A stretch of DNA of 60,379 bases, counting the filler, from Jimgerdemannia flammicorona (taxonomy: Eukaryota): the NCBI GenBank assembly GCA_003990765.1. It is 3 parts of 3 records of this genome, joined end to end, with 100 filler letters (N's around TTAATTAATTAA, not from the genome) between each part and the next. Parts side by side here need not be neighbours in the genome. Positions count along the whole stretch, not along the records: positions 20,164 to 40,225 come from RBNJ01001772.1; 2 more parts are not named here. One strand, written 5' to 3'. Of the stretch, positions 11,545-34,467 are shown piece after piece. The translations under genes and the position numbers were made by a program. The notes below the pieces were generated by a model. It did no database searches and was not told the origin of the DNA. It saw nothing but the letters and a program-made list of their open reading frames with translations. The first letter of the stretch is position 1, and the number at the start of each line of letters is the position of its first letter.

Positions 11545-12366
11545 TGTAATAACTCTCACTTCTATCCCTCTCTTATCCTTAGGATAATTAGGGAAGTGGA
11601 CTATTACTTAGAGACTTAGTATACAATGTGTACCAAGAAGCCTTCAGTTGAGGAAGCACTCACTTAAAGTAGTTGTAGTGGCAGTGCCTTATCTTTCAAA
11701 GGTCTTTCTGGTTTGCCTTCAGTTTCAAAGGTCTTTCTCTTGTGCCCTATTTTGAGGGTCTTGTTCTTTGCTGTGCACAGACTGAATTTGCCTTGGAATT
11801 CAGGTTCAATGGGTTTACTTAAGTCTTTGGGGATTTATATACCAGTCTCAGTTCTGGCAGAAGTTAGCTAGGCTTCTGGAGTTTAGTCAGAAACACTAGA
11901 GTCACTTAGATGTCATTACTAAGACTCAGGGGAATGTGTGTGTGTGGGGGGGACTTGATTCTTGTATCAAGGACTGAACTAAAACTGCTTATTTCGGATG
12001 GAAACTGGGGGGGGTATTTATACAAGTTGGTCTGCAATTTCTGACTAAGTATGAGTGACTAATTTGGTAAATATAATGAGGTTTGTGATCACGACTTTTG
12101 TCAGGTGGTTTTTGGCAAAAACAACTTTGTGATCAGGACCTCAATTACTAGGCAATGATCAGCAACTGTGGCAACTGTTACTGCAGCGCCGATTGTTGGG
12201 GATAAGCTGGATATCATTTTCCACGTCGTTTCGCATCATTTGTTCATTTGTTATTCATATGCCACACTCAATCATATGATGACATCATCGCCAGGTCACG
12301 TGATCATTTGTCATTCATTGTTTGTCGCTTGTCGCTCGTCGCTCATCGCTTGTTCATTCTATTACA
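11545..12366 (-). repeat. 3' LTR of family 2 (822 bp, TGTAAT...ATTACA)
   Basis: Inverted termini, PPT immediately adjacent (12367-12380), TATAAATA on the minus strand at 12015-12022, first 134 bp repeated at 19930-20063. Confidence 0.9.
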
Positions 12367-12377
12367 TCCTTCCCCCC

Positions 12378-13205
12378 TTAGAAATCAACATCCTCGTTGA
12401 TTGAGAAATTGAGAACCAGGGGAGAGAAAGGTGGGGAATCCTCCTCAGGGTCATTACTATCTTCTTCAGGGGCAGGGGGGGTGGTTACTGGTGGTTTGCT
12501 GTCCAGGATGGAGAAGTCAATGAGGTCTGCAAATGGTTCTCACACTGGGTTTTGTACTGGTGTTGGGGTTCTCCATCTGATGTGGTTGGGGCCATCCAAG
12601 TAGGGCTCTTGATCTTCATGCCTGGGAATATCCATTTGAATAGGTGGTCCTTCAAAGAGGTCAGAGAGGCCTTGGAGCCATTGGTCAGGGTTGTCATTCA
12701 GGAGGGGGCTCCAGTAGGGTTTGCAGTCAGTAGACTTGGGGGTGATCCAGAAGTTGGCTTCTTGGGCTACCTTGATCTCTAGTTCATCGACCTCAGGGAA
12801 AGAGAGGTTCTGGAAGTCCTTCAGTTGTATATAGTTGAGGTTGGGGATCATGAAAGGTGTATGATGTATGATTTGATGGACCTTCTTGGCAAGTCTTTGC
12901 TCATGCCTGTCTAGGTGAGTCCAGTCAGAGATTTGGTCCATAGGCAGGTCCTTTGCATGTTGGAGGAGTTGATGGCCAATCTTGTATTCATGCCAGATCT
13001 CTAGGTGGCTGGTGGTAAGGTAGGCTCTGTCAATGAGTTCACGACGGTCAAGGACATACTGTCCTAGGTCTGGGCTAGAGAGGTTAAGGGCCTCTGAGTG
13101 GCAGTTCCTTCCTTGGATGGCAACCTGGATGTGTCCAAAGAGGCAGTCAATCTGGCTTGGGAGGGGCTGGCTACGGCGGGCAGTTTGGCGGTAGGTGGCA
13201 GGCAT
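12378..13205 (-). pseudogene. Accessory ORF3 of family 2 (275 codons, one internal TGA at 12540)
   Basis: The 221-aa ORF continues in frame through a TGA (likely CGA>TGA) to a TAA abutting the PPT. It is homologous to the ORF at 21233-22432. Confidence 0.75.
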
Positions 13206-13269: not shown

Positions 13270-13277
13270 TATTTATA
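13270..13277 (-). promoter_or_regulatory. TATA box for ORF3
   Basis: TATAAATACCC 65 nt upstream of the ATG, in the same context as the LTR TATA boxes at 12015 and 21036. Confidence 0.55.
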
Positions 13278-13847: not shown

Positions 13848-16800
13848 TTAGAGCTGTAGTTCCTTCCTTTGCTGGGGGGTGAGTGTTTCCATGTAGTCCT
13901 GGAGGGCTTCGCGTGCATTCTTCAGGGCTTCTTCTTTTTCCCAGGTGGCATCATGGGTGGGGTAACCCTTCCACTTGATCAGGAAAAGGCACTTGAGCAC
14001 TTTGGGATATTTGCGGACCTTGTGGTCAAGTACTTCCTTAATTTCAAATTCCTCATGATCATTGATCCTAATTGGGGGTGGTGGTGGAACTATATGCTCG
14101 AGAAATGGGTTCTCATGGTAGTCCACCAATTGGCTGATATTAAATACTGGGTGTACCTGGATATTGTGGGGAAGTTGCAACTTGTAGTTGACTTCGCTGA
14201 TTTTTTCCATGATCTTGTATGGTCCAATTCTTCTAGCATGGAGTTTCTTGGCTGGTTGTTGTGCCAGGGTATTAGGGTGGAGGTGGTCTGTTCTAAGCAT
14301 GACCTTGTCACCAATATTGTAGGAGGCTTCTCTTTGTTTCAAGTTCGCATACTTGGTCTGGTAGTCTTGTGCTTCTATGAGAGCATCTCTTATCATTCGT
14401 GTAAGGTCAGAAATGGTCTCGGCCAGATCTTGGGCTGCTGGGACTGCTGATTTCATTGTAGTACTTGGGGTCCTTGGGTGTTGACCATGGTTCAGGAAGA
14501 ATGGAGTCTTCTTTGTAGAGGTTTGCTGACTGTTGTTGTAAGCAAACTCAGCATGGGCCAGGTACTTGTCCTAATCATTTTGCTTGTAACAGCAGAAGAT
14601 GCTAAGCATCTGTTTGAGAGTCCTGTTGGTTCGCTCGGTTTGACCATCAGTCTGAGGGTGGTAGGCTGTAGAGAACTTCAGCTTGGTTCCATGGAGGGAG
14701 AAAAATGCCTTCCAGAAGTTGCTTGTGAACTTGGCATCTTGGTCAGATACAATGGTACTAGGCATGCCATGTAGCCTGAATACTTGGTTGAGAAAGATCT
14801 TGGCAATCTCTGGTGCTGTAGCAGTGGTCCTGGTGGGTGCAAAATGGGCTTGTTTACTTAGGCAGTCCACGAATACTATGATGGCATCCCATCCTGCCTT
14901 GGTCTTGGGGAGTTGAACAATGAAGTCCATCGCAATCTGGTCCCAATTGTGACTCAGGATAGGCAAGGGTTGTAGGAGTCCTGCTGGTAGCTTGTTACCA
15001 CTTTTGAACCTTTGGCACATCTTGCATGAGGCCACAAAATCTTTGATATCCTTGGTTATCTTTGGCCAGTAGAACTCTCTTGAGAGGAGGTTGTAGGTCT
15101 TTTCAAAACCAAAGTGTCCTGCTGTCGGAGTATCATGGAGTTCCTGCATGATCTTGAGTCGCAGAGTATTATTGTTGGGTACAACCACTCTGTCATGGTC
15201 CCTGTAGATAAGTCCATCATGGTAGATGAATCTTTTGGCCATTTGCCTCATGGGTTCTGGAATCTCGGCCTCTGGGTTTTGGCAGAATTGAAGGAAGTTT
15301 ATCAGGGAACTGTCTTGCTGGTAGCCATCCTTGATCATTTGGATAAGATCTCCAATTACTTTCACCATGAAGACAAGTTCGTCTTCCATGTACCTGGAGA
15401 AACCATCCACCACATGGTTGGTTTTGCCTGGGATGTACTTGATTTCCATATCAAAGTTGGCAATGACTTCCATCCAGCAGGCTTATCTGTGGGTCAGCAT
15501 GAGCTGTGTGTGAATATACCTCAGTGCATGGTGATCAGTGTAGACCACAAATGGCTGTCCTAGGAGGAAATGGCGCCATTCCTGGAGTGCAGTGACAATA
15601 GCCAGGAGTTCCTTCTCATGGGTGGTATACCGGGTCTCAGCTGGTTTGAGCTTTTGGGAAAGGTAGGCCACTGGGCAGTCTTCTTGGCTGAGCACTGCTC
15701 CAATAGCAATGTCAGAGGCATCTGTGGTCAGAGTGAATGGTCTGGTAGGGTCAGGTGCAATTAGCACTGGGGTCTCAGTAAGGAGTCTCTTGAGATGGTC
15801 TATAGCCAGAGTGCATTTGGGGGTCCATTCAGCTTTGATGTTCACTCCTTTATGGGCCAGGCTGGTCAATGGGACTGTAATAGCAGAGTATCCTTGGATA
15901 AACCTTCAGTAATAACCGGCAATACCCAGAAAGTGCTAGAGTAGCTTGAGGGTAGTAGGGATAGGGATATCCTTAAGGGCTGATACTTTTCGGGGGTCCA
16001 CATTGATACCTTCAGCAAAGATGATGTATCCTAGGTACTCAATCTGGTCTTGGTAGAACTTACACTTGCTCATCTTGGCATAGAGCTGGTGTTCTTGCAG
16101 AAGAGTCAGTACTTGTCTAAGGTGGGTGTAGTATAGCTCTACTGTCTCGCTGTAGATTAGTATATCATCAATATACACAAGAACACAGATGTTGAGGAGT
16201 GGTCCAAAGATGTCATTCATCAGGTACTGGAATGTTGCTGGTGCATTGGTCAATCCAAAAGACATGACTCAGAACTGGTAGTGTCCAAACCATGTTCGGA
16301 AAGCTGTCTTCTCAATGTCCTTCTCATCAATGAGAATCTGGTGGTAGCCATTTCGCAAGTCCAGTAAAGAAAAGGTCTTGGCCTTGAAGATTTGGTGTAG
16401 CAACTCATCAATCTGGGCAAGGCATACTGATTCTTGATAGTGATCTTGTTGAGGGCTCTGTAGTCAATACATATTTGCAGAGAGCCATCCTTCTTCTTGA
16501 CAAATAGAATGGGGGCTCCAAATGGAGAGTGGCTGAGTTCAATGTATCCTTGGGCCAGTAGTTTGGTCAATTCATCCTTGAGGGTCTTGAGCTCGGGTTG
16601 GGCTAGTTGATAGATACTCTTGTATAGGGGTTCAGATCCTGGAATAAGATCAATTCCATGTTGGATTTGGCACTTGGGTGGGAGTCCTTGAGGATCTTGG
16701 AATACATCTTGGAATTCTTCGAACAGTTCTTGAGCTTCTGTTGGAATTGGGCTACTTGTAGCTTCAGTGACTTCTTGTACTGTATAGATGAAGTAGATGT

Positions 16801-17452
16801 TTTCCTTTTTTCGAGAGAGTCTCTTCATTTGAATGGCAGAGATGATTTCGATTCCTTGGTGGTTGGTACCTTCCTGGGGTATCAGGGTGATCTTTCTGCC
16901 TTCATGGGTCAGGTTAACCTCGTTGGTTCTCCAGTTGATGTCTGGGTTGTGCTGGGTCAACCAGGCTTTTCCTAAGATAATGTCTTGTTCTGGGAGATCT
17001 ATAATGCTGAAGTCCAACTTCTCTTGATATTTGCCAATCTTGAGTAAAAGGTCTTTGCAGATCTTAGTCAATGGTGCAGTTTTTCCATCACCAAAGGTAA
17101 TACTTCTTTTCTCAGCAGTGGGTCTGCTTTGGGCTCCAATCCTCTTGGCGGTCTTAGTGCTGATATAGTTTCTAGTAGCACCACTATCAAGCAAGACATT
17201 GACATTTTGTCTGTGAACTTGGCCTGTGAACTTGATGCAACTATCCTCCTTCTTGATGGTATTGAGCTCTTCATCCTCATTATTGTCCCAATTGCTGTCA
17301 GTCTCCTCAAAGTCAGTTTCTCCCCATCCTTCGCAAGGAGGGTTGTCTTGTTTGGGTTCCTCAGTCTGTTGAGCTTGGTGCTTTTTGGATTGAATTTTGA
17401 AAACTTTGGAGAGGCATGCATGGTATTCACCAATATATTCCATGCAGTACAT
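13848..17452 (-). pseudogene. pol: pol: protease, RT, RNase H, integrase, chromodomain
   Basis: [125 protein letters not shown]. Confidence 0.95.
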
Positions 17453-17561
17453 TCGAATGGAATGAGGGCATCATCCACATGGTGCATAACCATCTGCAAT
17501 TCTCTTGTACCAGTTTTCATCATCTTCCTTCATGGTAGTGACCTTTTGACTGGAAGGTTTG

Positions 17562-17980
17562 TTGGTAGATCCAAACCCTTTCTTGCCATGGTCTGTCTGG
17601 GAGAGTTCGGGGACTTCTTCGATGGTGAGATCTTGACGGATTTCTTCAATAATTGCTTGGGCAATTCTTTGGCCTGCTTTGACTTCAAATGATGTATCTC
17701 CAAAATTTCGCAAGATGACATGGATTTCACTAGTAAATTCTTGGTCAACTACTCCTCCTCCTAGCCCAATGTTGAACTCTTTGGCTAGGCTGCTTCACTC
17801 AGCAAGGCAGATGTATGTACCTCTGGGGGCTTGCATTGCAATTCCTGTTCACACTGTGGCATTGGTGCTTGGTGGGATGGTGAGGTCTTGGCTGCTGTAG
17901 AGGTCATATCCAGCATCAGTTGGGTGAGCCTTGGTAGGGATGGTAGCCTTGTACCATATCTTTTGTACTTTGATGACATT
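17562..17980 (-). pseudogene. dut: dUTPase domain between gag and protease
   Basis: All five trimeric dUTPase motifs are recognisable: DAGYDL, (R)SSLA, GVVDQEFTSEI, GQRIAQAI, HGKKGFGST. Two TGA stops at expected Arg codons. Confidence 0.9.
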
Positions 17981-18059
17981 CTCGGGATTCTTCTTTCCTG
18001 GACCTTCTCCAATGACAGTAATGTTCTGGTTACTGGGTTCGCCTGATCTGTTTCTCTTC

Positions 18060-19828
18060 TCAGGGCATTTGACTGAGATATGTCCTGCCTTCTTGCAGAT
18101 GAAGCACAATCCTTTTTCATGGAGCTGCTTCCTCTCATCCTCAGTGGGAGGTCTGGGTCCTCTGGGGTTTCGCTGGTTCCTTTAATCATATCTTTGATCA
18201 TATCTTTGGTCATTCCTTTGATCATTTCTTCTGGTAGGATTTCTCCTATCTTGGGTATCTTTCTTGTGTTCTTGATTTCATGGAGCTTGTACAGCAAGGA
18301 TTTCGCGGGCTCTTCTTTGTACTTGGGCAAAGCATCATGAGTAGTGGGGACATCCTTGGAGAAGACCTTGTTCCTTGATCTTCTGGGTGAGCCAGTCTGG
18401 TAGGGCTGCAAAGAGGTGATTGGCTCTGATACCATTGATGGCCAAATTGTTCTCCTGATAGGTAAGTCCAACAGTTTTGAGATAGGCATCCATTCTGGTG
18501 GCAAAGGTCTCTAGATCCTCTTCGCCATTCTTGTGGAACTTCATCTGGGACAGTTTGTTCCATGTTTCTTGTATGTAAGCCGCATTTTGGAATTTGGTCA
18601 GTAGCAAGGCCTTGAGTCCTGGGCCTGCTTTGTAGTCATCCCACCCTGGTCTATTGTTGCCAGGTACTTGTCTATTGACTTGAGGGCAGTTTTCCCAGGT
18701 TACTGGGTATTGTTTCAAGGTTTGCCAGAATTCGGCTGCTATTCTAGTGAAGAATGTGGATACTGTTTCTACTTGTGCTGCTGATGTGGCAAACAGCTGT
18801 TGAAGGGTGCTGTTCTGGTTGTTGGTGAGCATTCCTATAGGTACTCAGTTGTCATTCCATTGGTTTGCTCAGTAGTCTGTGTCAACTGTATTGATGAAGT
18901 TTTCGATGTTGCTGTTTTTTCCACTAAATGTTGAGATTCACAAAGTCTTGGTTGGTTTGTTCTGTTCAGCAATCTGTCCAACTATCCCTGCTAGTGCTGC
19001 TAGCTGAGTGGTCAGTACTGTAATATTGGCATCTACCATTGTGTTGACTATTGGTGGCAGACCTGTTGGGGTGGATTCTCTTGAAGATTGTTCCACTTGG
19101 TGGGGTTGTGGTGCTGTATGACTTGGGGTTACTTGATTCCCGGATATTAAGTCAAAGAGTCCTGTGAGAGAGGGTAAACCAAATCTCTGTATAGGTGGCT
19201 GAGTTGGTTCTGGGGTCTGATCTTCTTGGCCTGTGGTTCCTTGGTAAATTCCTAGGCCTACTGTTCCTCGTTGGCTATCATCAGACTGGTGACCTGTAGA
19301 TTCTTCATCTGACTCCCTTCCCTGATGAGATAGTGCATCCTCATACTGACTAGGTCCTTCAAAGAGGATATCAGTCTCTGGCTGGGTTGATGGGCCTGCT
19401 CCTTGTTCAGTAGTAGGGGATGGATGGCCTGCTTGCTCGTTCTCGTACCTAGTTATGGCAGAGGCGTAGTATACAACTAGCCTGTAGTAGAGGGAGGTCT
19501 TGGTTGGGGTATGATGATATCTATCAGAGGCAATCTACTCGGTAGCTGCTTCTCTTGCAGCAGGGGGTATAATATAATCTAAAAAATCCTGGGTGGCTGC
19601 ATTAGTAGATTCTGGGGTCCTAGTGGTTCCAATGTGTCCTCGGAGGAGTTCGTAGAACCTACAGCAGCTAACAATATTCCTAAGTCCTGGGTGGTATGTC
19701 CTAAAGACCTGGTATAGATCCTTGTAAGCCTGGTCAATTACAAGCTGGTGGGTCCTTGGGTCTGTAGTTTCCTGATACCACCTGGTCCTAATGGCAAGAG
19801 CTTCTCTGGCTCTGGTTTGAGGATCCAC
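18060..19828 (-). pseudogene. gag: gag with long N-terminal extension and CCHC knuckle
   Basis: Reading through several stops, the frame from ATG 19828 runs into the capsid-like region (ORF 18335-18832). Knuckle CFICKKAGHISVKC at about 18109-18068. Confidence 0.8.
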
Positions 19829-19914
19829 AGTTATTTCTGGGGGTTACTCCTGTCCAAGGTTGGTCTTGTTCCAACTTTAGGAGTATGTTCTTTGGTGCCT
19901 TCTTGGCTGGTAAT

Positions 19915-19926
19915 CCACTGCTACCA
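19915..19926 (-). promoter_or_regulatory. Primer-binding site (initiator tRNA-Met-like)
   Basis: TGGTAGCAGTGG 3 nt after the LTR end; resembles the TGGTAGCAG complement of eukaryotic tRNAiMet 3' ends. Confidence 0.7.
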
Positions 19927-20063
19927 AGTTGTAATAACTCTCACTTCTATCCCTCTCTTATCCTTAGGATAATTAGGGAAGTGGACTATTACTTAGGGAC
20001 TTAGTACACAATGTGTACCAAGAAGCCTTCAGTTGAGGAAGCGCTCACTTAAAGTAGTTGTAG

Positions 20064-20163
20064 NNNNNNNNNNNNNNNNNNNNNNNNNNNNNNNNNNNNN
20101 NNNNNNNTTAATTAATTAANNNNNNNNNNNNNNNNNNNNNNNNNNNNNNNNNNNNNNNNNNNN
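20064..20163. other. Artificial contig linker
   Basis: 44 N + TTAATTAATTAA (stops in all six frames) + 44 N. Confidence 0.97.
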
Positions 20164-20554
20164 AAGACTGCTGCTGGTTGTCCTAGGTCGCTCGGATTTG
20201 TGGAGCTGACAAAACTCTTGTTGAGAAGAGTAAAGAAGGCTTCAATAAGACCTTCTTCGTCTTGACTTACTGGGTGTAGTGCAAGGAGTTTGGTGAATAG
20301 GGTTTCACCTATTTGCTGATTTAACTTGAGTACTTCTTTCTTTGAATGAAGTTTATCCCACTTGTTGCAGGTGTGGAGGTCAAATTGTCCTTGTATGTCA
20401 GGTTCAATTCTCTCCAGATTGTCAGATGGTTCAGGATAAATTCCAGTTCAGAGGTTGGGCTTTATACCAACTTGTAGGAATTCTCAGAGGGGTTTGTAGC
20501 GGGGTGAGGAAGCATCTTGAAGTGGAATTGGATTGTAAACTGCTGCTACCAAGT

Positions 20555-22616
20555 TGTAAGAGGGTTACTTTTTAGGGTAACCATTACGTAGTTCTAGAAG
20601 GGTTTTCTGGAAGTTCTGGATATTCTAGAAGACCGTTTTCTTATGGTTAAGATCAATTTCGTATGGAGTACATCCTCTATGCTTATTGATTTCAAGATCA
20701 GGTTGACGTCTCAACCAAAGTCCTTTTCTGGACTAGTTCTGGATGTTCAGGATTTTCCATGTTTCAGGAAGTTCAAGAAACTAAGACCAGCTTAGTTGAA
20801 TTGACGTATCGCTGCAGACAATACCCAATTAGGAAATTTCGTGACAGGGTTAGGAGTAGGACCTAACAGAGAGCAGATTTACTTAAAAGTGGTTTGTGGG
20901 TTATGGAATAGGTTTATTTGCTATTCATAATATTGCTATACTAGGAGTAGTTGTGTGAAGGGGTATTGTAGGGAAGTGCTCAGGAGTTGTGTTTGGATTG
21001 TTCAAGTCTGAGATTCTGAGGTCTGGGGGAGGGGGTATTTATACTAGTGAGGGGCTATCTAGACTAGGCTAGATATGGATGTAGCACTAAGTGCTTTGCT
21101 GAGTCGGAATACAGTCATATAGTATAAGTGTGATCTGACATGTCAAGGGATCGTCTGACTGCTGAGTCAGTTCACAGTCATGTCGTACAAGGCTAATCTA
21201 AGTATACTATGACTGCTAGGCTATTTATGGGTTTAGGCACTATCTGGGTAGTCTTCGATGACATCACCATCGATTGCATCATCTCTGATGATGTAGTCAT
21301 CTAGGAAGAGTGGTTCACGGATTACTTCTTCTTGTTGGCTGAGGTAGTAATACATTGAGACTTCATCTCCATCCCACAGGATAGCATCGTCTGTTTCGTA
21401 TGCTGGATAAGGTGTTGGTGGGCGAAGGATGGGTGTACTGTCTTTGCTTTCATCGGATTCACTGTCTGCATACCTTCTATAGGTTACGGCACTATGAGTT
21501 ATGGGGTTATAGTATGCTGGCGGCTGTTCATGTTGCTCGTACTCAGGTGGTGGAGTGGTTGGTTCGATCTCGAGGGTTGTCTGAAGGTACAGGTTGTGTT
21601 CTCCAGTCTCTTCATTGTAATTGAAGTAATCAGGGGTGAACGCAGGTTGGTATTTGTGCCAGTGGTCATTGTCCCAATAAGTCTTGTATGCAGTTATGAA
21701 CTGTTGTAGGTTTATCGGCAAGGTTGGCAGAGTGATCAGAGTTGGCAGAGATCCTTGGCTAGAGGTCATGTTGATATCAGAGGGATCATTGTCTTCTGCT
21801 TCATCTTCATCGAAGTGGATTATATCGTAGACGTCCTTCATAGCGTATCTGACTTGAGGCATTTGCAGGATGTGGTCATCAGGGTGCGAGAAGGTTCTGT
21901 CTGTGGTTTTGACATACTCGAGGTACTTGTGGTTGAGTTCTTGTATCATGTCATCGATTTGGCCATAGGACAGGGTAGCAACCATTTCGCTGGTAGTAAC
22001 TCGGAGGCAGGGAATAAAGGTGTTGTACTCATAGAAGAGTTCTCGATGTTTGCGGGCGATGAGCTTCTGGTGTTGAGACATCTGGGTAATATCTGTATCA
22101 TGGTGGTGTTCGACCATGTCTTCTAGGAGGCGGCCGATCTGGTAGTAGCTTGAGATTTGTCCGATTCGGTGGGCCTCGCTAAGCATGTTCAGGGCGTTCC
22201 ATCGGGCTTCCACGAAGTAGAGGGGTACTAGGCTATGGATATTCATGAGGGGCAGAGGGGGTGTGGCTCGGTTGACAATGGTATTCCAAATGTCAGCGTA
22301 GATGTGGTTGTAGATCTCAGTGGTCATGTTTGTGTGTTTGGAAGTTGTGGTTGTTGTTTGTTTTGGTTCTCTAATTCGACACGTCTTGGTGCTCAGTATA
22401 TATGCATTTGGTCCTGATTGGTAAGGTTCCATTTGTGTAGATCTTGTGTTCCGTGACTTTGTATTGACTCAGCTTTGTGCACTGTGACTTCAGTTTGACT
22501 CAGCTTTGTGATCAAGCAGGTGATTTCCAGATTTGTTTGGAGGTCGTGTGTGATTTCAGTGGCTTTGTTCAGAGGGTGATGTATAATTTCGGTGGCTTGG
22601 AGGTTGTGTGCTTACA
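20555..22616 (-). repeat. 2062-bp LTR (TGTAAG...CTTACA) containing an ORF
   Basis: 6-bp inverted termini, PBS adjacent at 20540-20551, TATAAATA at 21036-21043. The second LTR is not in the window. Confidence 0.75.
21233..22432 (-). CDS. LTR-encoded uncharacterised protein (399 aa; likely start MTTEI at 22327, 364 aa)
   Basis: Uninterrupted ORF with a helical-looking N-terminal domain homologous to ORF3 at 12378-13205 and an acidic/Pro/Tyr-rich tail with PPEY and PPAY. TATATA about 70 nt upstream of 22327. Confidence 0.8.
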   Translation of the reverse strand: MEPYQSGPNAYILSTKTCRIREPKQTTTTTSKHTNMTTEIYNHIYADIWNTIVNRATPPLPLMNIHSLVPLYFVEARWNALNMLSEAHRIGQISSYYQIGRLLEDMVEHHHDTDITQMSQHQKLIARKHRELFYEYNTFIPCLRVTTSEMVATLSYGQIDDMIQELNHKYLEYVKTTDRTFSHPDDHILQMPQVRYAMKDVYDIIHFDEDEAEDNDPSDINMTSSQGSLPTLITLPTLPINLQQFITAYKTYWDNDHWHKYQPAFTPDYFNYNEETGEHNLYLQTTLEIEPTTPPPEYEQHEQPPAYYNPITHSAVTYRRYADSESDESKDSTPILRPPTPYPAYETDDAILWDGDEVSMYYYLSQQEEVIREPLFLDDYIIRDDAIDGDVIEDYPDSA

Positions 22617-23500
22617 AGTACTCCTATCTCTCTACCACCTATTTAACATATCCATTATCAGTTACTCCTATCTAGCTACCTTTACCCCCAATATCAACTA
22701 TTGATTCTTCTTAAATACAGAAAGCCAATGACCTGTAAGACTGACTCAAATTGTCAGCACTTATATCAATTACTCATCTTTCAACCCCCCCACCAGTCTC
22801 CTCCAGAGGTCTCCCTATCTCTCTTTAGCTATCAACTCTAGTGGGTAGATCTCTAGCCATATCTCAATCTCTCTCTAAAAGTCACCCATTATCTCACACT
22901 CCCCCAGTCAATGTTCAGATATTTGTACCACTTCTCTCTCCTGCCTAATGTTCAGATACTCCTCACACTCCTAGGTTTCTCCTTCCATCAAGTGATTCAT
23001 CTGATAGTTCAACATTATATTATATTATAGAATTCTCCACCATACTACCCAGAACTTGGAAGGGATCCAACTCACTACCTGCTTACCCCACTATCAAATA
23101 CCATTCCAGTCCCACTCCTCTCTAATCTCCACTCTCTGCCACATCTCAGGCTACAGATCTCTTCTATATTCCTGAAGGCACTCTATGCCATCCTCCAAAC
23201 AGAAGTCATCTACTGATGCCCTGTCTAACAGAAGACAGTCAGTCCTATTTCTACATCTGGGGTCTCTATTCTTTCTCTTTTTCATCACTCTACCATCAGA
23301 GATCAATATGATGTACCCCATCAATCACTCTTTACCAAAATCCCCTATAGTATATCCTCTGACTCCCCTCCAATACTACCAGAGATAGAAGATCTCCAGT
23401 TGCTCTACAGAGGGAGAACTCAGTCCCCCACACCCTCTATATGTATGAGGAGAACTCACTCTCTGTCTCTTAACCTGTTCACTTGCCATACTCTCAAGCA
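22617..23500 (-). mobile_element. Diverged LINE ORF2 C-terminal fragment (target of family 3 insertion)
   Basis: Translates to CLRVW..GDLLSLV..RGFW..EEWDW..PSKFWVVWW, matching the C-terminal ORF2 of the copy at 33200-33700. Confidence 0.7.
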
Positions 23501-23963
23501 GTAAAGATACTTAGATCTTATAAGACTTCTATATATGATATATTACTGTCTCAAAGAATCTAAATATATTTGTAGAAGAAGAAAAATATATACTTATAAG
23601 ACTTAGAAAATAGTACTATATCTATTACTGGTATTAGTTCTAACATAATATCTTCAGTAATATACTTTCAGTCTATCTACTTTTTCTATAAAAGATAACT
23701 ATATTAAAGTTATATATACTAGCTTATTTTATATAAATAAATATAGCCAGCTTTCTCAAGTTTTTGTTTGATATCTTGATATAGTTGTGACTTATAGTAA
23801 AAGAAGATATAAATCTTTATTTTATTTTTTTTTAAAAAAAATTAACAATAATTTAATTTTGAGAATTCTTCTCTATATTGACTATAGATATAGATAGAGT
23901 ATATCAGAATAGATTTATATTAGGTAGAAAGAGATTGTTAGGGTAGAGTAATATATAAAGTAT

Positions 23964-26068
23964 TATAATATAGTAGATATATAACTATATAAATATATCA
24001 GATTTTTGTATCTTAAAACTTGATCTTCTTTAACTCTACAGAGTTCTCAGGATATAGAGGTGGTGAGTTTGAAGTATATCTGCCTACAGGCTTACTAGTT
24101 CTCTTACTTTCTCTTTGCTTTAAACTATTTTGATCTGAGGTTTATTTACTTTAGATATTGGGAATATTTATATAAGTTTGCTAGCTATAAGATGGCTAAA
24201 TTATAACTATATTTCCTATAAGTCATACTTTAATATCTATAAATACTTTAATATTTATGAATACTTTAATATCTGTAAATACCCTAACATCTGTTAAAGT
24301 TCCCATATGTTAAATATAACTACTATTTGTAAGGCTATACTATATTTGGGAATCAGATTCAGATACTACAATTAAATGTCTATTTTTCTGATTCATATTA
24401 CTAATTCAGATCAACCATCATAACTTCCTTCTAAATAGGTAATTTGTCTCTGAAATATCCATTCACTCAAACTCCCAAGCTTCTATAATTTGTATCTCCT
24501 TGTACCATACAATCTGTATTATTATGTTCTCCTAATAGTATCTTTTGATATATCCAAAGTCTCCTGGAACTACTTCTTAGAGATGGGCTAGAGCTGGCTT
24601 ATCATCTTTAAACAACTTATTAACTTATTTGGCAACTGTGATCTAAATATAAGAGAGCCAGTACTTTCTGATCAATCTTCTTTTTCCATCTCTGACTATG
24701 AGTGTAGCTATCTCAATTTGAAGTATTTTTGAAACTTGGTCTGATTCTAATAAGCCTTGAAATATGAGATTTATAACAAGTATGTCTGAACTATACTCTG
24801 GATGCTGTCAAAGGATTCTTTCATGATTGGTGATTCAGTAGTATACTATTGTCTTTCTATGGCTTATTGTATAGTACTAGTGATTTTGAGGGCTACATTA
24901 GTATTTCATTGATTAGTCATAATACTTCTTGAGTTAGTTTTGATAAATGGTAGTAAGGATGATTGTGTCTGAGAGTTTTAATAGCCAAAAGGTGGTTCCT
25001 TTTATATCTTGTACCAAGTAAGGTTCTTCCTACTTAGGCTTTAGCTTTTATGACTATAAAGCTTCTACTATATTCTAATATATCAGGACTTTATCTCCTA
25101 TCTTGATAATCTCCAGAGGCTTGTGAATCTTTTCTGTATTATTCTATTATAGTATCTGTATCTTAGTTATATAATTCTCAGCCTTCTTTCTGATTTGGTA
25201 TAGTCTCTATATCTATATCTATATATTTTCATATAGTATCTCTATTAGATAATAAGATTTCTTGAGAACTTTCTTCTCCAAACAGTATCTCTCAAGAGGT
25301 AAAATAGGTGCTTTGTAATCATATATCTCAACAAGCAGATAATGCTATTAGCAGATAGTGATCCTAATTTTTATAGTTATTACAGATCTTAGTGATGATG
25401 TTCTTGAGAGTCTTATTGGTCTCTTCTGCTTGTCCATTTCTCTAAGAGTGATAGGCTGTAGTTTGAATATACTAGATCTTATACTTTTTGTAGAGAACCT
25501 CAAAGAACTAGTTTATAAATTCTGTTCCTCTGTCTATAGTTATTTGCAATAGGGTCTTGAATTGGCAGATTATTTCTTTGTAGAAGAAATTATATATTGG
25601 CTTCTTTGAGGGGTCCTGCCTCTATCCATTTTGTAAAAAGGTCTACAATGATAATGATATATCAGTTGCTAGTCAAAGTCAATAGTAAAGGACCAATTAC
25701 ATCTATTGCTATATAGGTAAATAGTACTAGTTCTATATGTGCTGATCTGGAGCTTTGATTTTGTTAATCTTATTTCTATTTCTGGTATTTGTCACAGGTC
25801 TTGACAAATCATCTGATATCTTTCTCTATTTCTGATCACTACATTATTCTTCTTACTTTATCATATATATTTGTTTCTCTTAGATAGCTAAGTTTATATA
25901 CTAATTTCATTACTTACTCCTTCTTATATTTAAGTATAACTTGTAGCTTCTCTTTTAGTATTTCTCCATCAATCTCAAATTGTTTCCATATTCTGTTAAT
26001 AATCATTTGTGTCTATTCTTCTAGTTGTTGGGACATCTTTTGCTATCCCAGATAGGTAATAATTCTAT
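23964..26068 (-). mobile_element. Ty3/Gypsy family 1: hypermutated integrase, PPT and 3' LTR (about 23964-24424)
   Basis: The LTR is the reverse complement homolog of 9486-9955. Integrase remnants GPL..IVDLFTKWIEA and TTAYH..NGQAE.TNKTLK. Very AT-rich. Confidence 0.8.
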
Positions 26069-28510
26069 CAACCTTTCTCAGCTACCACTCACATTATACA
26101 TACTCTACAACATACTTTCAAGTTGTTTATTAGAGAAAGATACTAAGACAATGACAAATAGCAAGCAATCTGGGGTATATACTGGGCAGTGCAGCCCTAG
26201 CACATTCAACTGGCAGCAGATGGAGAGAGGTCCTGGTCTGGGGGGAGGTATGAGGGAGTTGTTGGCAGGAGGATGAGGTGGGGGAGGAGGCAGTGGGGGA
26301 GGATAGGGGTCTAGGAGGGTGAGCTTTGTGGAGATGGTGAAGGGGAGGCAGCAGGTGACTGGGCTAAAGAGCTGGCTGAGGAAAGATAAGAAGATGGAGA
26401 AGTCAGCTATTTGTGGGGAAGCAGCTCTTGGGGGTGAGGGCAGTGGAGCTGGGGAGTAACAGCTGGGGGAAATGTGATGACTGATAGTGATGAGACTGCC
26501 AATCTGGAAAAAAATCCAGATATAACCACTAATGGTGTGGCTGAGCAACTGAGGCTTAGAAGATAAGGAGATTTGGCAGATGGTGTGACAGGCCTGGTAG
26601 TGGCTCCATTACTCAAGAAATCAATCTCAGTATTCATGGTGACATTGTGCTTCTGGAGTCTGGTAGTGATAGTGAAAATAGTGCTGGGGCTTATTGCCAA
26701 GCAGGTGGCAGGAATAGCATCGGTAAAGTTCTTGAAGAGATTGGAGGGAGTGGAGGTGGGTTTTGAGGAGGCTGAGCCCCTGGAGGATGCGCTGAAGGTT
26801 AGATTGATAGTTGGGGAGATGTGTGTCCTGATGGCATGCTATCTGAAATGGGACCCCAGGGTGGTCCAATTACTAGTGAAAGGAGTGCCCACAGTGACAG
26901 TAGTGGAGATGAGAAGGAGAGTTGAGGAGGTTATAGCGGAGTATGGTGAGGTGGTGGATATTAGATTCAGAGTCTGGGAGGGGACCTCGCTCAGAATGAG
27001 AGATGTAGATATGAGGATTCAGCTGGCAGAGAAAGAAGCTACTGAGAAGGCAAGAGACTGGCCATCAGGGATAGTCTAGGGGGCAATCTTGTATAAGGTA
27101 ATGAGGGTGAAGGGGAGTGAGGAGGAGGAAGAGGACTTGCTGGAGGCACTAGAAGAACTGAGTGGAGCAGTGGAGCAGTGGGCAAAGGCTTGGAAGACTT
27201 TCGAGAAGTCAACACATTTAGAGGTGGTAGATGGGAAGCAGATTTGAGTGGACAAGGTACAATGGGAAAAAGTTCAGAGATATAAGCATCAGAAGGAGCT
27301 ACTGGCCAAGTTGGAAAGTCGACCACAGAAGGAGGCTGGTGGAATGGTGGAAACAGGGGGTGCTAAAGCGAGGATCTGGGCTGATGAAGATAGTAGGGGT
27401 GCAGAGAAAGGATCAGGAGAGGGCAAGAAGGTAGCTGGCAGTGACCTGTATGCTGATGGTACACTTGAGATCTGGGAAGAGGACTGGGAGAGATCACCTA
27501 CCCCTACTCTACTTATCAGGGGGGGTCTGACTTCCTGGTGCAGGATGGGAGAGGATGTATCTATGAAGGGGGTCCAGCAAGTACAATTTAGAGTCCCAGA
27601 GGTGGCAAATGGGGGACAGGTGGAGGCAGTTGGCAAGGAGGAACTGATGAATATCCCAGAGGTGTGGGATGAGGCTGCAAGTACTGGGGCTGATACTATG
27701 ATATTGGACAGCAGGCAACCAGCAACCCTGGGAGGAAAGAAGATAGGAAACCTACTTTGGATGTATAGAATGAAGAATAATCTGGTAGCTGAAGAGCTGG
27801 GGGAGGTAGACTTGAGGGTGATGAGTGATGAGCATTGGGCACAGGTCCTGCAGGGGGATGGTGTAGAGTTGGCATTAAAGGCAGAGATCCTTGCAGTATA
27901 TCTGGAGGAGGAAGGATATGAAGTAGATGAGGAGCAGAAGGCTGAGCTAGCAGGGGTTACTGGTAAGAGGGCTAAATACTGTTGGGCCAAGCAACATGGA
28001 TTGCAGCTCTGGCAGGAGGTTTGCCTAGAGTACCGAGAGGAGTTTGAGGAGAAGGCAGATAGAGAGATGAATGAACTATTAGCAGAATTGGAGGCTCAGA
28101 GGACAGAGGAGGAGAAGGTGACAGCAGAATATAATCTGAATATGGCACAAGAAGAGACAAATATGGAGCAGTAGAATTGAACTGGATTAATATACCATAC
28201 TTTATTATGAATAGTACAACCAACATTTTTTCTTTAAACATAAATGGGTTATGGAGTGCAGTTTGATGTAGGAATATTTTTACTTGGCTGAAGAGATTGG
28301 AGGCTGATCTCTTTCTCTTGCAGGATGTCAGGTATGATGATAATTTGGATAGACTGGAATGGATAAAGAAATGGGGAGGTGAGGCAGTTTGGAAAGGTGA
28401 GGTTGGGATTCTGGTGCAGAAAGGCAGAGGAGAGATAAGGGACATATGGAGCTGGGGGGATCAATTGGTCTGGGGTGAGTGGATATGTTCGAGATGGGAG
28501 CTGGTCCAGT
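26069..28510 (+). mobile_element. LINE copy D (5' end, ORF1, start of endonuclease)
   Basis: 5' motif CAACCTTTCTC, ORF1 from 26151, ORF2 MNSTTNIFSLN at about 28208, interrupted by copy E. Confidence 0.9.
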
Positions 28511-31500
28511 ACCATCTTTCTCCAGTAACATTTAGGTTACACAATCTTTTAGCAACACTTTTGATACAGTTTTTGGAGACAAGCTACTAGTATCATGGCA
28601 ACCAATGAGCATCCTGAGGTGTGTACTGGGCAGGGTGGCCCTGGAGCATTCAAATGGCAGCAAGTAGGGAGAGGCCCTGGCTTGGGAGATAGTATGAGGG
28701 GTCTGCTGGCAGGAGGATGTGGTGGAGGAGGGGGTGGAGCTGGAGGTCAAGGGTCTGGCAGAGCGAGCTTTGTGGAGAAGGTGAAGGGGGGTCAGCAGAG
28801 AGCTGGACTAGAGAGCTGGCTGAGGGGGGAGAAGGTGCCAGTAAGAGCTACTAGACAGCAATCTCATGAGGATACCTCTCCAGAGGGCCATAGGGATGGA
28901 GCTGGGGGGGTAGCGGCTGAGGCAGGGACTGCTGATGGGGGTGTGATGGGTGATCTGGTGGATGGTGTAATGGGACTGGCAGTGGCTCTGTTACTCAAGA
29001 AGTCGATCTTAGAATTTGTAGTCATGATGTGTTTCCAGAGCTTGGTAGTGATGGCAAAAATGGTTCTGAGGCTGATCGCAAAGCAGATGAGTGGTGCAGC
29101 ATCTGTTAAGTTCCTGAAGGGCCTAGAAGGGGTGGAGGTGGGATTTGAGGAGGCTGGGCCACTGGAGGAGACTTTGAAGACTGGGATGAAAGTGGGCGAG
29201 GTGTGCATACTGATGGTGAGATACCTGCAGTGGGACCTGAGAGTAGTGCAGCTTCTGGTGAAAGAAGTCTCCACTGTTACTGCTGTAGAGACGAGGAAGA
29301 GAGTTGCAGAGATCATGGCAGAGTATGGGGAGGTAGTCGATATTGGGTTCAGAGTGTGGAAAGGAACCTCTCTCTGGACAGAGGATGTTGACATCAGGAT
29401 TTGGTTGGCTGGGCGGGAGGCTACTGGGAAGGCTCGAGACTGGCCCTCAGTGATGGTGTGGGGGGCTATCTTATACAGGGTGATGAGAGTAAAGAGGAGC
29501 AAGGAGGAGGAGGAGGATTTGCTGGAAGCACTGGAGGAGTTGAGTGGAGTGGTGGAAAGGAGGGCGAAAGCATGGAAGGCATTCGAGGAGGCGATACATC
29601 TTAAGGTGGTTGGAGGGAAGCGAGTCTGCATCAACAAGGAGGTGTGGAAGAGGTCTCAAGGGCGCAGAAGACAGAGAGAATTGTTGGCAAAAATGGGGGC
29701 AGAGGAAATGAGGAAGGCGAGCAATAGTGCAACTACTAGAGGTGCTGAGGCGAGTGTCTGGGCTATTAGTGGTGGAAAGAATGAGGAGGGGGGGTGGGTG
29801 GAGGCCATGAAGGTGCTGAGCAAGAATCCATATGAAGATGGCATACTGGAGGTTTGGGAGGAAACCTGGGAGGGTTCACCTTCACCCTCCCCCCTTATCA
29901 GAAGGGGTCCAGCAGCAAGAGGCAGAGTGGTGGAGGATGTACTGATGCACAGTGCTCAGCAGGTGTGCTTTGGAGTTTCAAATGTGGAGAAGGGGGGATT
30001 GGTAGAGGTGACTGGGGAAGAGAAATTGGTGGATGTCCCAGAGGAGGGATGGAATAAGTTGGCGAGTATAGGGGCTGATACTATGATGTTGGATGGAGGG
30101 AGGCCAGTGACCCCAGGAGGGAAGGAGGTGAGAAACTTGCTCTGAGTATGCTAGATGATGAACAACTTGGCAGCAGAAGAGCTGGGGGAAGTCAACCTCC
30201 GAGTGATGAGCAATGAGTATTGGGCAAGGATCCTGCAGGGCGATGGAGTGGTGGCAGCATTGAAGGCAGAAATCCTGGTAGTATACTTGGAGGAGGAGGG
30301 ATATGAGGTAGATAAGGAGAGGGAAGCTACTCTGGCAGTTGTGGCAGGTGAGCAGGCTGCCCACTGTTGGACTAAGCAGCATGGACTGCAGCTCTGGCAG
30401 GAGGCTTATTTGGAGTACCAATAGGAGTTTGAGGAAAAGGAGGATGGGGAGATGGCTGAGATCCTGGCTAAGTTGGAGGCTAAGAGGACCGAGGAAGCAG
30501 AAGCTATTGCAGAGCACAACCTGGATAGGGCACAGGAGGAAGTAGACATGGAGCAGTAGAGGATGTATCTGAAACAATATAATTCCCCTTATGAATAGTA
30601 CAACCAACATTTTTTCTTTGAATATGAATGGGTTATGGGGTGCTTATTGATATAAGAACATTTTTACTTGGCTGAAGGGATTGGAGGCTGATCTTTTTCT
30701 CTTGCAGGATGTCAGGTGTGAGGATGACTTGGATAGACTGGAATGGATGAAGGAGTGGGGAGGTGAGGTAGTTTGGAAGGGCAAGGTTGGAATTCTAGTG
30801 TGGAAGGGCAGAGGGGAGATACAGGATGTGCAGAGCTGGGGGGATAGATTGGTCTGGGGAGTACAGGTTGGGGGCCAGTTATGGTGGGCTCCTATTACTG
30901 CCCTGCGGTATGGGGCAAGCAGGTGAATTAGGTAATAGGCCTACAGGAGAGTGGAATTCTTATGGGGGTTGGGGTAGATGTGCTCGGTGGGGACTTTAAT
31001 ATGGTCTGTGACATATTGAGGGATAGAACTGATGGAGGACAAGGAGCTGTGGGTCAGAGTGGAGAACTGGCAGCATGGGAGGAAGTGGAAAGACTGAGTG
31101 TACTGGTGGATGCGGGTAGGAAATGTTGGGGGAATAGAAGGGTGTACATGCACTGGGCCAGGGGCCTGGGGATGAGGATTGATTGGATTCTGACTGCCAG
31201 TTGCTGGGGCTTGGATGTTTGGAAGTCACTAGAGGTGGAATGGTGTCCATGGTCGGATCATTGGGGACTTTTGGGGCAGGGAAATTTTGGGGGGAGTGGG
31301 GATGGGCCTGGACATTGGCATCTCAATTTCTCCTTACTAGATGATAAGATCTGGTGGGATAAATGGGCTGAAGTTGTTCAAATGCAGGTAGAGTGCTAGA
31401 GGCAGGAAGGTGTCCCAGTTGAAATTCAGTGGATGAGGATGAAAAAGATGGCCAGGGCCTTCTGGAGTGAGGCTAGTATAGAGGCAGGGAGACAGAGGAG

Positions 31501-34467
31501 GCAGTGGGTGTGGTGGGCATCTAGTAGACTATCTAGACTCTTGGAGGACTGGGCAAGATTGGTGACATTGGAGGGAGAGGAGGACTGGTGATTGATAAGG
31601 TTAAGAATAGAGGTGGCTGAACTACAACAGATGCTGTGGAATGAGAAAGAGGCAAGGGTCTAGGGTCTGGTGGTGTGGCTTCGTTGGCAGGGGCTGGAGG
31701 AAGGAGAGCAGCCCTCAAAGTTTCTTACAAGAGCCCTTTAGGCGAGAAGGGTGCAGCAAAGGTGGGAAGGGGTGCTTAATGCTGATGGTTTGTTGGTACA
31801 TGGGGTACAAGACATTCTTGGATCATTAAAGGAGCATTGGAGTGGATTGTGAAGTAAGGAGGAGGGTGGGGCAGATGCTGAGGACATTGATCAGGTATTG
31901 GAGGATTGGCACCCTACCTGAGCAGATGGGTTGGGTGACTTAGTACTGCTAGTACTAAAGGAGGAGATCCACCAGATTCTTGCTATAACAACCTTAGGTA
32001 TGGCACCTGGGGAGGATGGTCTGCCCTGGGACTTCTGGAAAAAGATGATGGGAGTCCATGGAGTACTAGGAGAGATGATGGTACTGTGTGATTGGATTCT
32101 ACAGACAGGGAGATGGGTGGGAGAACAGGATTTAGGGTTGGTGACATTGCTTTATAAGAACAAAGAGAACTGAGAGGACTGGAGGAACTGGAGGCTGATT
32201 ATACTACTGGATATGGACAGAAAGTTGGTTACCAAAGTGGTGGTCACAAGATTGCAAAAGGTGGCCCAGCAAGTCTTGGGTGAGGAGCAGCAGGGCTTTG
32301 TTGGAGGCTGACTCATCAGGGATGGTATGGCATAGGTGTATGGTGTTATTGAAGGGGTATGAGCCAGTGGACTGGATGGGCATCTGGTCTTTTTGGACCA
32401 GGAGAAGGCCTATGACTGAGTGTGACAGATCTGGCTGGTGAAAGTTTTGGATAGGATTGGGGTCCTGCAACAGTTCAGGACTGCCATGGTCAGCCTACTG
32501 AAAGGAAGTAGGGTGGCACTCATGTGTAATGGACATAGAGGGGTAGCATTTTCCCTGGGTAGGGGGGTGCCCCAGGGGGACCCACTGTCCCCCATTTTGT
32601 ACACTTTGTCTTTGGAGCCCTTTATGGACAGAATCAGATAGAAGATAGTGGGGCTCTCTATCTTTGGCATTGGGTGGAAAGTAGGAGCATTTGTAGATGA
32701 CATAGTGATTGGTCTGGAATCAGTTGTGGATGTTGAGAAGCTCAAGGAAACAGTGAAATAGTATGAGGTGAACTCTGGGGCTAGGCTTAATTAACATAAG
32801 TGCAAAACAATGGTATTAGGCAATGGTCTGGTAGGAGGAGAGATTATTGGTACCATTGTTCCTGCTGGTGAGGTGGTATGGTACTTGGGTATTTATCTGT
32901 CAGTATATGGGTCAGTTCTGCCCAGACATTGGTGGGAGCAGTGGGTTGGCATCTGGGGGAAGGCCCTGCAGAGTTGGGGGGGCCACCAACTGTCTCTGAC
33001 AGGATGTGTTTTGATTCTGAACATCTATTGGCTGCTGAAGTTGTGGTATCTGGCTTATCATCTAGACTTCTCAGCTTGGGTAGTGAAGTGATTGATGAAG
33101 CTGGCCAAGGGGTGGATCTGGGCTAGAAGGTGGAGTCAGATCAACTAGGAGGTCTTGTCCTTACTGGTGGCGAGTGGGGGACTTGGGCTGGTTGACTTTC
33201 CTAAGAGGCTACACTGCTTGAGAGCATGGTGGCTGAAGAGAGCAGTGGAGTTGAGAGGGGGTGGTTGGGTTCCCCTACTGTAGAAAGTCTAGAAGATGAG
33301 GTCCTCTCCGAGGGGGTCGACTGGTGATCTCCTAGCACTTGTGGGCCTTCAGAACTCTGGACAATTGTAATACAAAGGCTTCTGGTGGGGAGTGGTGGAG
33401 GGGGTGTACTGTATTGGAATTAGGTGGCAGGGAAATGAAGGAGAGGAGGCTTGGGACCCAGCGATGTGGAGATGGGACCAAGTGTTACTAGGTGGCATTC
33501 CCTTAACTGAGTTTGATATTGGTAATGGGATCAAATACTAATGGGGACCAGACCAGGATCTGTGGCCTAGCAGTTGGCAGGGTGTAGGAATTGGTGAGGA
33601 GTGGGACTGGCATAGCATTTGGGCCTGGAGTACCAAGGTGAGGAGGTGGCTGCTACCGAAGTACTGGGTGGTCTGGTGGCATGTGCTGAGGCGAGATGTC
33701 ATGCTAAACTTCCACTCTGGTCACCTTATCGAGGGGGGCTGCTTCGACTGTAAAGAGTGTTTTAATATAGGGCAGGAAGGAGGATATGTACAGACACCTG
33801 AACATTGGCTAAGAGAGTGTGAGGTACTTAGTATCTTTTGGCAGAACATTGGAGATCATCTGGGAGTTGTACATAGGGGAGCTGCTGTGTGGGGGCAATG
33901 GGAGGATTTAAGGGACAGACTGGAGGGAGGGGTGGGGAAGGAATGGCTGATGCTAGGTTGGGCTTTGGCCATTTGGGTAGGGCTGGCCAGTCACTAGTTA
34001 TTTGTTTTTAAGGATGGGAGGAGACTTGGCTCTGAGGTCAGGCTGATGAGGTGGCGTAGTCTTATGGAAGACACCTTGATGGACTGGTGGCTTGGTTGGG
34101 GGTTGAAGGGGGGTCGAAGGCATCACTTGGTAGAACAAATCTGTAGGCAGAGTGGGGGGAGGGTTGGTGTTGTGGGTGAGAAAGTGGTCTTTGTTTTTGA
34201 AGATGAAAGGAGACTAGGATTGAGGATATGGTTGCTGAGATAGGAAGGGCTGATGGAGGACATATTGATGGTGTTGAGAAAATCTGTAGACAGAGTGGGA
34301 GGAGAGTTGGAGTGATGGGCAAATGGGTGTCTTTCAAGCATGAAGGAATAGGGGGGGGCCCCTCTAGGGGGATTGGGTAGTGAGAGGAGGTACTGTAACT
34401 ACATCTATAGACTGGTAATAAATGGCAAAGTCCAAGTGACTATAAAAAAAAAAATAAAAAAAAAAAA
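28511..34467 (+). mobile_element. Full-length (about 5.96 kb) degenerate L1/Tx1-like LINE, copy E
   Basis: 5' UTR; ORF1 28595-30559; ORF2 from 30591 with EN (GGDFN, RIDWIL, SDH), RT (DQEKAYD, GVPQGDPLSP, AFVDD) and C-terminal CFDCKEC..EHWLREC; AATAAA at 34417; poly(A) 34444-34467. Confidence 0.95.

Follow-up and report, generated by a model that had tools for sequence, protein, structure and literature searches.

We analysed a 60,379-nt stretch of Jimgerdemannia flammicorona DNA (assembly GCA_003990765.1), hereafter the window, in which a 2062-bp unit on the minus strand, at positions 20555 to 22616, is probably a true long terminal repeat (LTR) of a high-copy retrotransposon with a gene inside it. 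We refer to this unit as LTR1, to its retrotransposon as family 1, and to the gene as open reading frame 1 (ORF1); a second retrotransposon in the window, with LTRs of 0.82 kb, is family 2. The entire frame of ORF1 (22327 to 21233) sits between the LTR start at 22616 and a TATAAATA box at 21043. An earlier sequence-only reading of this DNA had proposed a 2-kb LTR with an internal protein frame, and the proposal is supported by sharp ends in all four sequencing runs analyzed, by a polypurine tract (PPT) in five contigs of one of them, and by a primer-binding site (PBS) in the window itself.

The termini are TGTAAG at 20555-20560 and CTTACA at 22611-22616, both read directly from the window where the sequence-only reading had placed them, and the same two ends recur as repeat borders in other samples. 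Inverted ends of 6 nt could by themselves be due to chance, and we therefore take the ends as fixed by the contig evidence that places borders there. The PBS, TGGTAGCAGCAG, is likewise present as described, 3 nt past the LTR end (20551 to 20540, minus strand); it presumably fits initiator tRNA-Met, and the window contains no tRNA gene to pair with it. Next comes the family-1 leader and the start of the internal region (20164 to 20539, minus strand), which is truncated by a linker and is repeated in the runs at a depth below that of LTR1. Family 1 in the window thus comprises LTR1, the PBS, and only about 390 nt of leader, and no second copy of LTR1 lies within the window. On the other side, the long interspersed nuclear element (LINE) said to flank the unit came down to 64% similarity over 283 nt, between the sequence past 22616 and the 3'-terminal part of the LINE family present in the window.

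To place these borders, we used public sequencing data. Sampled words of the stretch were found in 20 listed public runs from 12 studies, mostly labelled soil metagenome, the best run holding 0.32 of the words. Contigs of four runs were aligned to positions 20164-24500 at a likeness of at least 80%, and 4162 pieces were placed for X1, 488 for X2, 93 for X4, and 388 for X19. The loose ends, joints, variants, and indels quoted below are those among the rows listed, which cover 24 of 312 for loose ends and 40 of 598 for variants. Depth was high from 20164 through the bin 22484-22628 and about zero from 22629 in all four runs; in X1 the summed depth was 490-2805 over 20164-22628 and 0.18 in the following bin, with a like drop in X2, X4, and X19. 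The absence of read cover over 22629-23933 is uninformative on its own. Loose contig ends fell exactly at 20555 and 22617.

The contigs that run past these borders show what lies beyond them in other copies. Five X2 contigs extend beyond 22616 into a common sequence (agreement 0.76), and in its reverse complement, read by eye, a 13-nt purine run, AAGAAGGGGAGAG, abuts TGTAAG. A PPT-type purine run directly ahead of TGTAAG is the hallmark of a PPT meeting a 3' LTR. At the opposite border, one X4 contig and one X19 contig depart at exactly 20555 into sequence other than the PBS, as at a 3' LTR or a solo LTR. Based on the PBS in the window and on these PPT and non-PBS flanks in the contigs, LTR1 is seen in both 5'- and 3'-LTR contexts with identical ends. 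The ORF1 part of the unit is about twice as deep in X1 as the leader (490-659), which fits an LTR. The ORF1 stop is spanned by listed pieces from X4 (20920-21253), X19 (21006-21287), and X2 (21207-21364), and the start by pieces from X2 (22233-22478) and X4 (21926-22372).

Several points weigh against reading LTR1 as a single long LTR with a gene inside. The X1 depth of 20599-21178 (1853-2805) is about twice that of the ORF1 part (830-1523), and some LTR copies may therefore lack ORF1; alternatively, the R-U5 side of the LTR could be better conserved among subfamilies. In the fungal element crapaud of Podospora, LTR variation is reported to be concentrated in the unique 3' region, U3 (PMC10787394). 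The junction support comes from short contigs of other samples: at 22617 there are five, all from one run and with a median loose length of 19 nt, and at 20555 there is one contig in each of two runs. Neither two such LTRs around one element nor a target-site duplication was seen, in a window with one copy and among short contigs. The placement of family 1 among the chromoviruses is inferred, as its internal region is cut off about 390 nt in, and its sole link is 17 nt shared with family 2. Finally, a second TATA-like box at 22403 leaves the border between U3 and the R region ambiguous, the RNA start and end being predicted; ORF1 would lie in R, not in U3, if that upstream box drives the genomic RNA.

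The depth excess would also be expected if the true LTR were short (about 0.7 kb, 21232-20555) and ORF1 were an internal gene between pol and the LTR, in a tandem or shared-LTR arrangement with the upstream element cut at 22616. Family 2 shows just this order of pol, ORF2, PPT, and 822-bp LTR, and the X2 sequence past 22616 is conserved, as internal sequence would be. We nevertheless consider this arrangement improbable. The ORF1 stop is followed by no purine tract and no TG..-type start. In other copies, the 13-nt purine run abuts TGTAAG, which the opposite end matches in inverted form, and this junction aligns in register with that of family 2 (18 of 30 positions, by eye). The break at 22616 occurs in all four runs and hence is not peculiar to the window copy, and a PBS after the unit would additionally require a tandem element. 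Scanning LTR1 for purine windows (at least 11 of 12) gave a single one, in coding sequence at 21336-21322 with no TG after it, and TGTAA is present at the LTR start and nowhere else in the unit. The sequence-only reading was thus correct that there is no internal PPT or LTR start between the frame and the main TATA box.

Three further observations concern these repeats and stand apart from this argument. No RNA run is listed among those that contain the stretch, and the label "RNA?" of X19 is a guess. The summed depth of X19 over 20599-21033 is 838-4508, and from 21034 on, just at TATAAATA, it drops to 15. This step is absent from the DNA-type runs X1 and X2; it may reflect R-U5 transcripts or another family sharing that part, and we did not use it as evidence. 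Differences between X1 and the window copy over 20164-24500 are transitions at 347 places and transversions at 30, and nearly all differences in the four runs are transitions, an excess that would fit deamination of methylated cytosines or a process on repeats like repeat-induced point mutation (RIP). One X1 contig joins 24230 to 20557, indicating a further repeat adjoining the end of LTR1.

Within LTR1, the signals are arranged around ORF1 in two similar sets, all on the minus strand. Upstream of the first TATA box, a 31-nt tandem duplication (22444 to 22505) has a TGAGTCA, a bZIP-type site, in each copy. The TATA-like box ATATATA follows at 22397 to 22403, 75 nt ahead of the ATG at 22327, and then ORF1 itself (21233 to 22327; 364 aa plus the stop at 21235-21233), whose frame is open up to 22468 and has an earlier ATG at 22432. 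A 40-nt duplication (21097 to 21199; copies 75% identical and 63 nt apart), with TGACTCA and CGACTCA, comes after the ORF1 stop and ahead of the second TATA box. The second box, TATAAATA at 21036 to 21043, is the presumed promoter of the genomic RNA, and AATAAA at 20913 to 20918, the sole one in LTR1, is the presumed polyadenylation signal. Both TATA boxes named in the sequence-only reading are thus present where it put them. Of the TGASTCA sites in the window, 3 of 10 fall in LTR1, which makes up 3.4% of its length.

This layout suggests two similarly built promoter modules, one before ORF1 and one before the presumed genomic RNA start, in which two TGASTCA-type sites are combined with a TATA box. 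The single AATAAA, about 320 nt past the ORF1 stop, would serve both, and an mRNA of about 1.45 kb would be possible from each LTR alone. ORF1, with two bZIP-type sites and a TATA-like box ahead of it, would then be a self-contained transcription unit in the LTR.

ORF1 is more than a chance frame. The sequence-only reading had claimed a stop-free sense frame of 364-399 aa upstream of the main TATA box, and the frame is present on the minus strand from 22432 to 21233: it encodes 399 aa when read from the first ATG and 364 aa from the one at 22327, and it stays open for 411 codons between stops. The probability of 411 open codons is 1.5e-9 under the base composition of LTR1, and about 9e-6 such frames are expected in the window. 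A protein search covering all 1.84 billion representative proteins returned three matches, P0001, P0002, and P0003. P0002 is 92% identical over 128 aa, and its first Met coincides with that of the 364-aa form. P0001 is 65-67% identical over 247 aa and is open throughout, and its alignment to ORF1 has long near-invariant blocks, such as WHKYQPAFTPDYFNYNE.TGEHNLYLQTT, beside variable acidic stretches, a pattern that appears to be that of a protein under constraint. Both are unnamed or "hypothetical." We rejected P0003 (E 2.9e-9) as a relative, as it is a repeat protein in which one 38-residue stretch was matched six times.

Searches of environmental sequence added no relative of ORF1. Among the JGI metagenome contigs, the alignment query (one peptide pattern) gave 74 pattern matches and the single-protein query (six patterns) gave 20, none of which was confirmed in either case, and a scan of IMG/VR gave no match. 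None of the 12 indels listed falls in ORF1. Of the 10 variant sites listed in ORF1, 6 are synonymous, which is the right direction for a gene under constraint but is not significant.

We also asked whether ORF1 is a disused relic, or was never a gene, and is open merely through the youth of this copy. The lack of any known domain or confident fold would agree with that, as would the premature stop in the neighbouring ORF2. Yet P0001 is blockwise conserved over an open 247 aa at that level of identity, P0006, a relative of ORF2, keeps that frame open where the window copy is broken, and the probability of the frame is very small; we give the relic little credence. ORF1 stands as an orphan protein that is apparently conserved, based on these sequence comparisons.

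The N-terminal half of the predicted ORF1 protein, about 170 aa, is helical, and a very acidic tail rich in Tyr and Pro comes after it. The isoelectric point of the protein is 4.4; the net charge of residues 151-364 is -35, and this part contains 20 Tyr and 21 Pro. Because a helical half joined to an acidic, aromatic, and Pro-rich half resembles acidic activation domains, we tentatively propose that the protein may be a trans-acting regulator encoded by the element, working by transactivation or by countering silencing, and we would favour such a role over a structural or enzymatic one. We regard this as possible but well short of probable, and the structural and family searches weigh against it. 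The proposed role comes from composition only. Pfam, at E values up to 10, gave no family for ORF1, P0001, or the ORF2 relative P0005. AlphaFold2 on the 364-aa form gave a pLDDT (predicted local distance difference test score) of 34.1 for the sequence alone and 30.9 with a three-row alignment, and no residue reached 50. The best ESM Atlas scores were 0.83, 0.82, and 0.81, to unnamed clusters of which two are commonest in Mucoromycota; the recognition value of 1928 is below the level of known families and serves as a lead only.

A more specific role for the tail was raised by the sequence-only reading, which had pointed to two PPxY motifs, and with them the protein would be an adaptor for ubiquitin ligases of the Nedd4/Rsp5 type. 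PPEY and PPAY are indeed present, 8 residues apart in a Pro-rich and probably disordered tail, and a variant in 10 X1 contigs retains QPPAYYNP despite four synonymous changes (by eye, at the loose end at 21526). The motifs are not conserved, however: both are lost in P0001 (PLSEY and QPLAYY), though the flanking residues are conserved, and ORF2 and its relatives have no PPxY. We find an adaptor role very improbable, and a trans-acting regulator is the role that we carry forward.

The gag-pol next to LTR1 in the window belongs to the second retrotransposon, family 2. Between them, at 20064 to 20163, lies the string N44-TTAATTAATTAA-N44, which the sequence-only reading had overlooked and which recurs identically at 40226-40325. 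We take it for a scaffold linker at an assembly gap, of the kind of spacer that carries stops in all six frames. At least three contigs are thus joined in the window, and features on either side of a linker need not be neighbours. On the far side of the first linker, the last 134 nt of a family-2 5' LTR (19930 to 20063, minus strand) are cut at the contig end; they are 97.8% identical to the family-2 3' LTR (19929-20063 versus 11544-11678). This remnant has TGTAAT at its start and is preceded by the same spacer and PBS as in family 1. Because of the linker and of the element's own 0.82-kb family-2 LTRs, the gag-pol is not shown to belong with LTR1, and a link between them is not supported.

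Family 2 is otherwise laid out on the minus strand as follows. Its coding region (13851 to 19843), identified by Pfam and broken by stops and frame changes, holds gag (zf-CCHC), dUTPase, protease, reverse transcriptase, RNase H, integrase, SH3, and a chromodomain. The dUTPase (17474-18181; Pfam E values of 2.8e-16 and 6.7e-6) lies between the gag zinc knuckle and the protease. In this gag-pol the integrase is followed by a chromodomain, as in Ty3/gypsy chromoviruses. A TATAAATA box at 13270 to 13277 lies 72 nt upstream of ORF2 (12378 to 13205; 275 codons plus the stop), which has one in-frame TGA at 12542-12540 and whose stop codon directly abuts the polypurine tract GGGGGGAAGGA at 12367 to 12377. 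The 3' LTR follows at 11545 to 12366 (822 bp, TGTAAT..ATTACA, with TATAAA at 12022).

Seventeen nucleotides are common to the two families and consist of TTACA at the LTR end, an ACT spacer, and the PBS TGGTAGCAG (20540-20557 versus 19915-19932). Nucleotide alignment found no convincing similarity between the 3' part of LTR1 and the family-2 LTR, LTR2, or between the two leaders past the PBS. From the PBS and the end motif, the family-1 element is probably a chromovirus relative of family 2.

ORF2 invites a comparison with ORF1. Its relatives P0005 and P0006 are 59-62% identical to it, and P0006 reads through the site at which the window copy has its TGA; ORF2 is therefore likewise a real, conserved gene family, a second orphan. 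Pfam at E values up to 10 gave two chance-level matches for it. A homolog of ORF1 just outside the family-2 LTR had been claimed in the sequence-only reading, and a frame is indeed there, at 13205 to 12381 before the PPT, but its similarity to ORF1 is weak. BLASTP matched the two over 72 residues with an E value of 7e-4, hhalign matched the same stretch with E values of 0.026-0.03 and a probability below 2%, and 9 of 2000 shuffles reached the observed Smith-Waterman score. The layout is shared: in each, a TATA box lies 72-75 nt ahead of the ATG, and a helical N-terminal part precedes an acidic tail with hydrophobic residues. We therefore describe ORF2 as a positional analogue of ORF1 and a possible distant homolog.

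The junctions ahead of the two LTRs bear on how ORF1 came to lie where it does. The 30 nt ahead of the LTR1 start in the X2 contigs match the 30 nt ahead of the LTR2 start at 18 of 30 positions, against about 7.5 expected by chance, in a comparison of one 30-nt consensus with a median loose end of 19 nt. The match, made by eye, is ungapped and right-justified at the junction; TGTTGA and CTAAG are part of it, the latter with a TAA stop that immediately precedes the purine run in both families. This suggests that the two families have their PPT and LTR start at orthologous positions and that the internal region of family 1 may likewise end with a frame. The sequence-only reading had proposed that the gene was captured into U3 by a shift of the PPT. 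With the junctions in register and ORF1 downstream of them, a gain inside U3, or a loss in family 2, fits better, and that proposal is not upheld. The gene would then have been gained inside U3, downstream of an unchanged PPT and LTR start.

Such a gain could be recent, with the ORF1 cassette (about 22440-21230) inserted secondarily into the U3 of one subfamily as a captured host gene or a small mobile unit. Neither the PPT nor the LTR start seems to have changed between the families, which would put the addition of ORF1 downstream of them; the ORF1 part is shallower than the rest of LTR1 in X1; and U3 is the LTR part that tolerates change, with variation concentrated there in crapaud (PMC10787394). 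Other evidence makes a secondary insertion a poor explanation. None of the seven joints listed skips ORF1, and the loose-end rows listed show no cluster at its borders. The base make-up of ORF1 (A 0.32, C 0.30, G 0.17) is A+C-rich and G-poor, like that of retroelement gag-pol and unlike the balanced BTB-SPRY and kinase frames of the window, which argues against recent capture of a host gene. No host homolog was found among the 1.84 billion representatives, which yielded two fragments of the same family and one spurious repeat protein, and relatives at 65% identity indicate an old gene family. We therefore retain the reading in which ORF1 is a long-standing gene of the element, housed in its LTR.

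The remaining features of the window are listed for completeness. The further repeat that the X1 contig joins to the LTR1 end is present as an inverted pair (23991-24230 and 9717-9928), which is 80% identical, and is deep in the runs at 24079-24223. A LINE family (Exo_endo_phos, RVT_1) is represented by at least six copies or fragments, 66-86% alike, which take up much of the window in 1-9000, 26000-33700, and 45700-55400, the closest pair being 28516-33519 and 45776-50856 (86%). Next to an open frame of 728 codons with BTB and SPRY domains (36177-38363, minus strand), a protein-kinase domain is divided between two neighbouring frames (38675-39895, plus strand); these are probably host genes.

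In reverse transcription, any sequence that lies between the PPT and the RNA start ends up in both LTRs and persists in solo LTRs. Because of how LTRs are made, the U3 at the RNA's 3' end is the source of the copies at both ends of the new DNA; ORF1 would therefore be doubled at each retrotransposition and would be retained in every solo LTR; this much of the sequence-only reading follows from the established scheme. We can extend it to a model in which each LTR, solo LTRs included, is an autonomous gene copy, and in which dispersed copies supply a trans-acting regulator that keeps the family transcribed, through transactivation or by opposing host silencing, with "dead" solo LTRs as a helper reservoir. 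This model is speculative, and we think it rather unlikely as a whole.

Among known systems, the closest in arrangement is sag, the superantigen gene in the U3 region of the LTR from mouse mammary tumor virus (MMTV), which is the textbook case. Like ORF1, its whole frame is in the LTR upstream of the main promoter, the LTR is unusually long, and the gene is carried in both proviral LTRs. MMTV is a vertebrate retrovirus, whereas ORF1 belongs to a retrotransposon of a soil eukaryote; the two have no sequence relation, as ORF1 has no Pfam match, and the predicted TATA-like box of its own is a further difference. The nef gene of human and simian immunodeficiency viruses and the bel/bet genes of foamy viruses are 3'-end accessory genes that reach into U3; in foamy viruses, the 3' accessory genes are driven by a second, internal promoter, and one of them transactivates the LTR. 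These genes start in the internal region and overlap U3, whereas ORF1 lies wholly after the PPT and the LTR start, and no sequence similarity to it was found. No relation of ORF1 to Sag, Nef, or Bet appeared in Pfam at E values up to 10 or in the protein search, with two true relatives among the 1.84 billion representatives.

Retrotransposons with additional genes have been described. Fungal chromoviruses can have an "additional ORF with unknown function," and some fungal Ty3/gypsy elements have a dUTPase (Novikova et al. 2010, PMC2864245). Family 2 fits these elements, being a chromovirus with a zf-CCHC gag, a dUTPase, a chromodomain, and an extra frame, ORF2, between pol and the PPT. ORF1 differs from ORF2 in being inside the LTR and not in the internal region. 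LTR retrotransposons of bdelloid rotifers have captured extra ORFs (PMC5408684) and resemble family 1 in having a further gene besides gag and pol, but they belong to a different host group and their proteins are unrelated. That paper has neither "within the LTR" nor "into the LTR," and its one passage with "in the LTR" does not concern an ORF in an LTR. From a survey of LTR structure (PMC3601003), the terms "ORF," "open reading frame," "sag," "superantigen," and "nef" are all absent, and the sole paper with the phrase "LTR contains an ORF" was a review of MMTV (PMC9412291). A search of the literature by exact phrase for retrotransposon LTRs with an ORF inside gave nothing relevant, a weak test that cannot prove absence.

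The usual view is that LTRs are noncoding control regions and that solo LTRs are inert scars or stray promoters. When a gene sits wholly within an LTR, each replication cycle doubles it, and it survives the LTR-LTR recombination that deletes gag and pol, so that its copy number and persistence would obey rules unlike those of the element's other genes. ORF1 is in addition a warning for annotation pipelines that mask LTRs ahead of gene calling. If its protein does act on its own promoter or on host silencing, it would represent a new kind of interplay between transposon and host.

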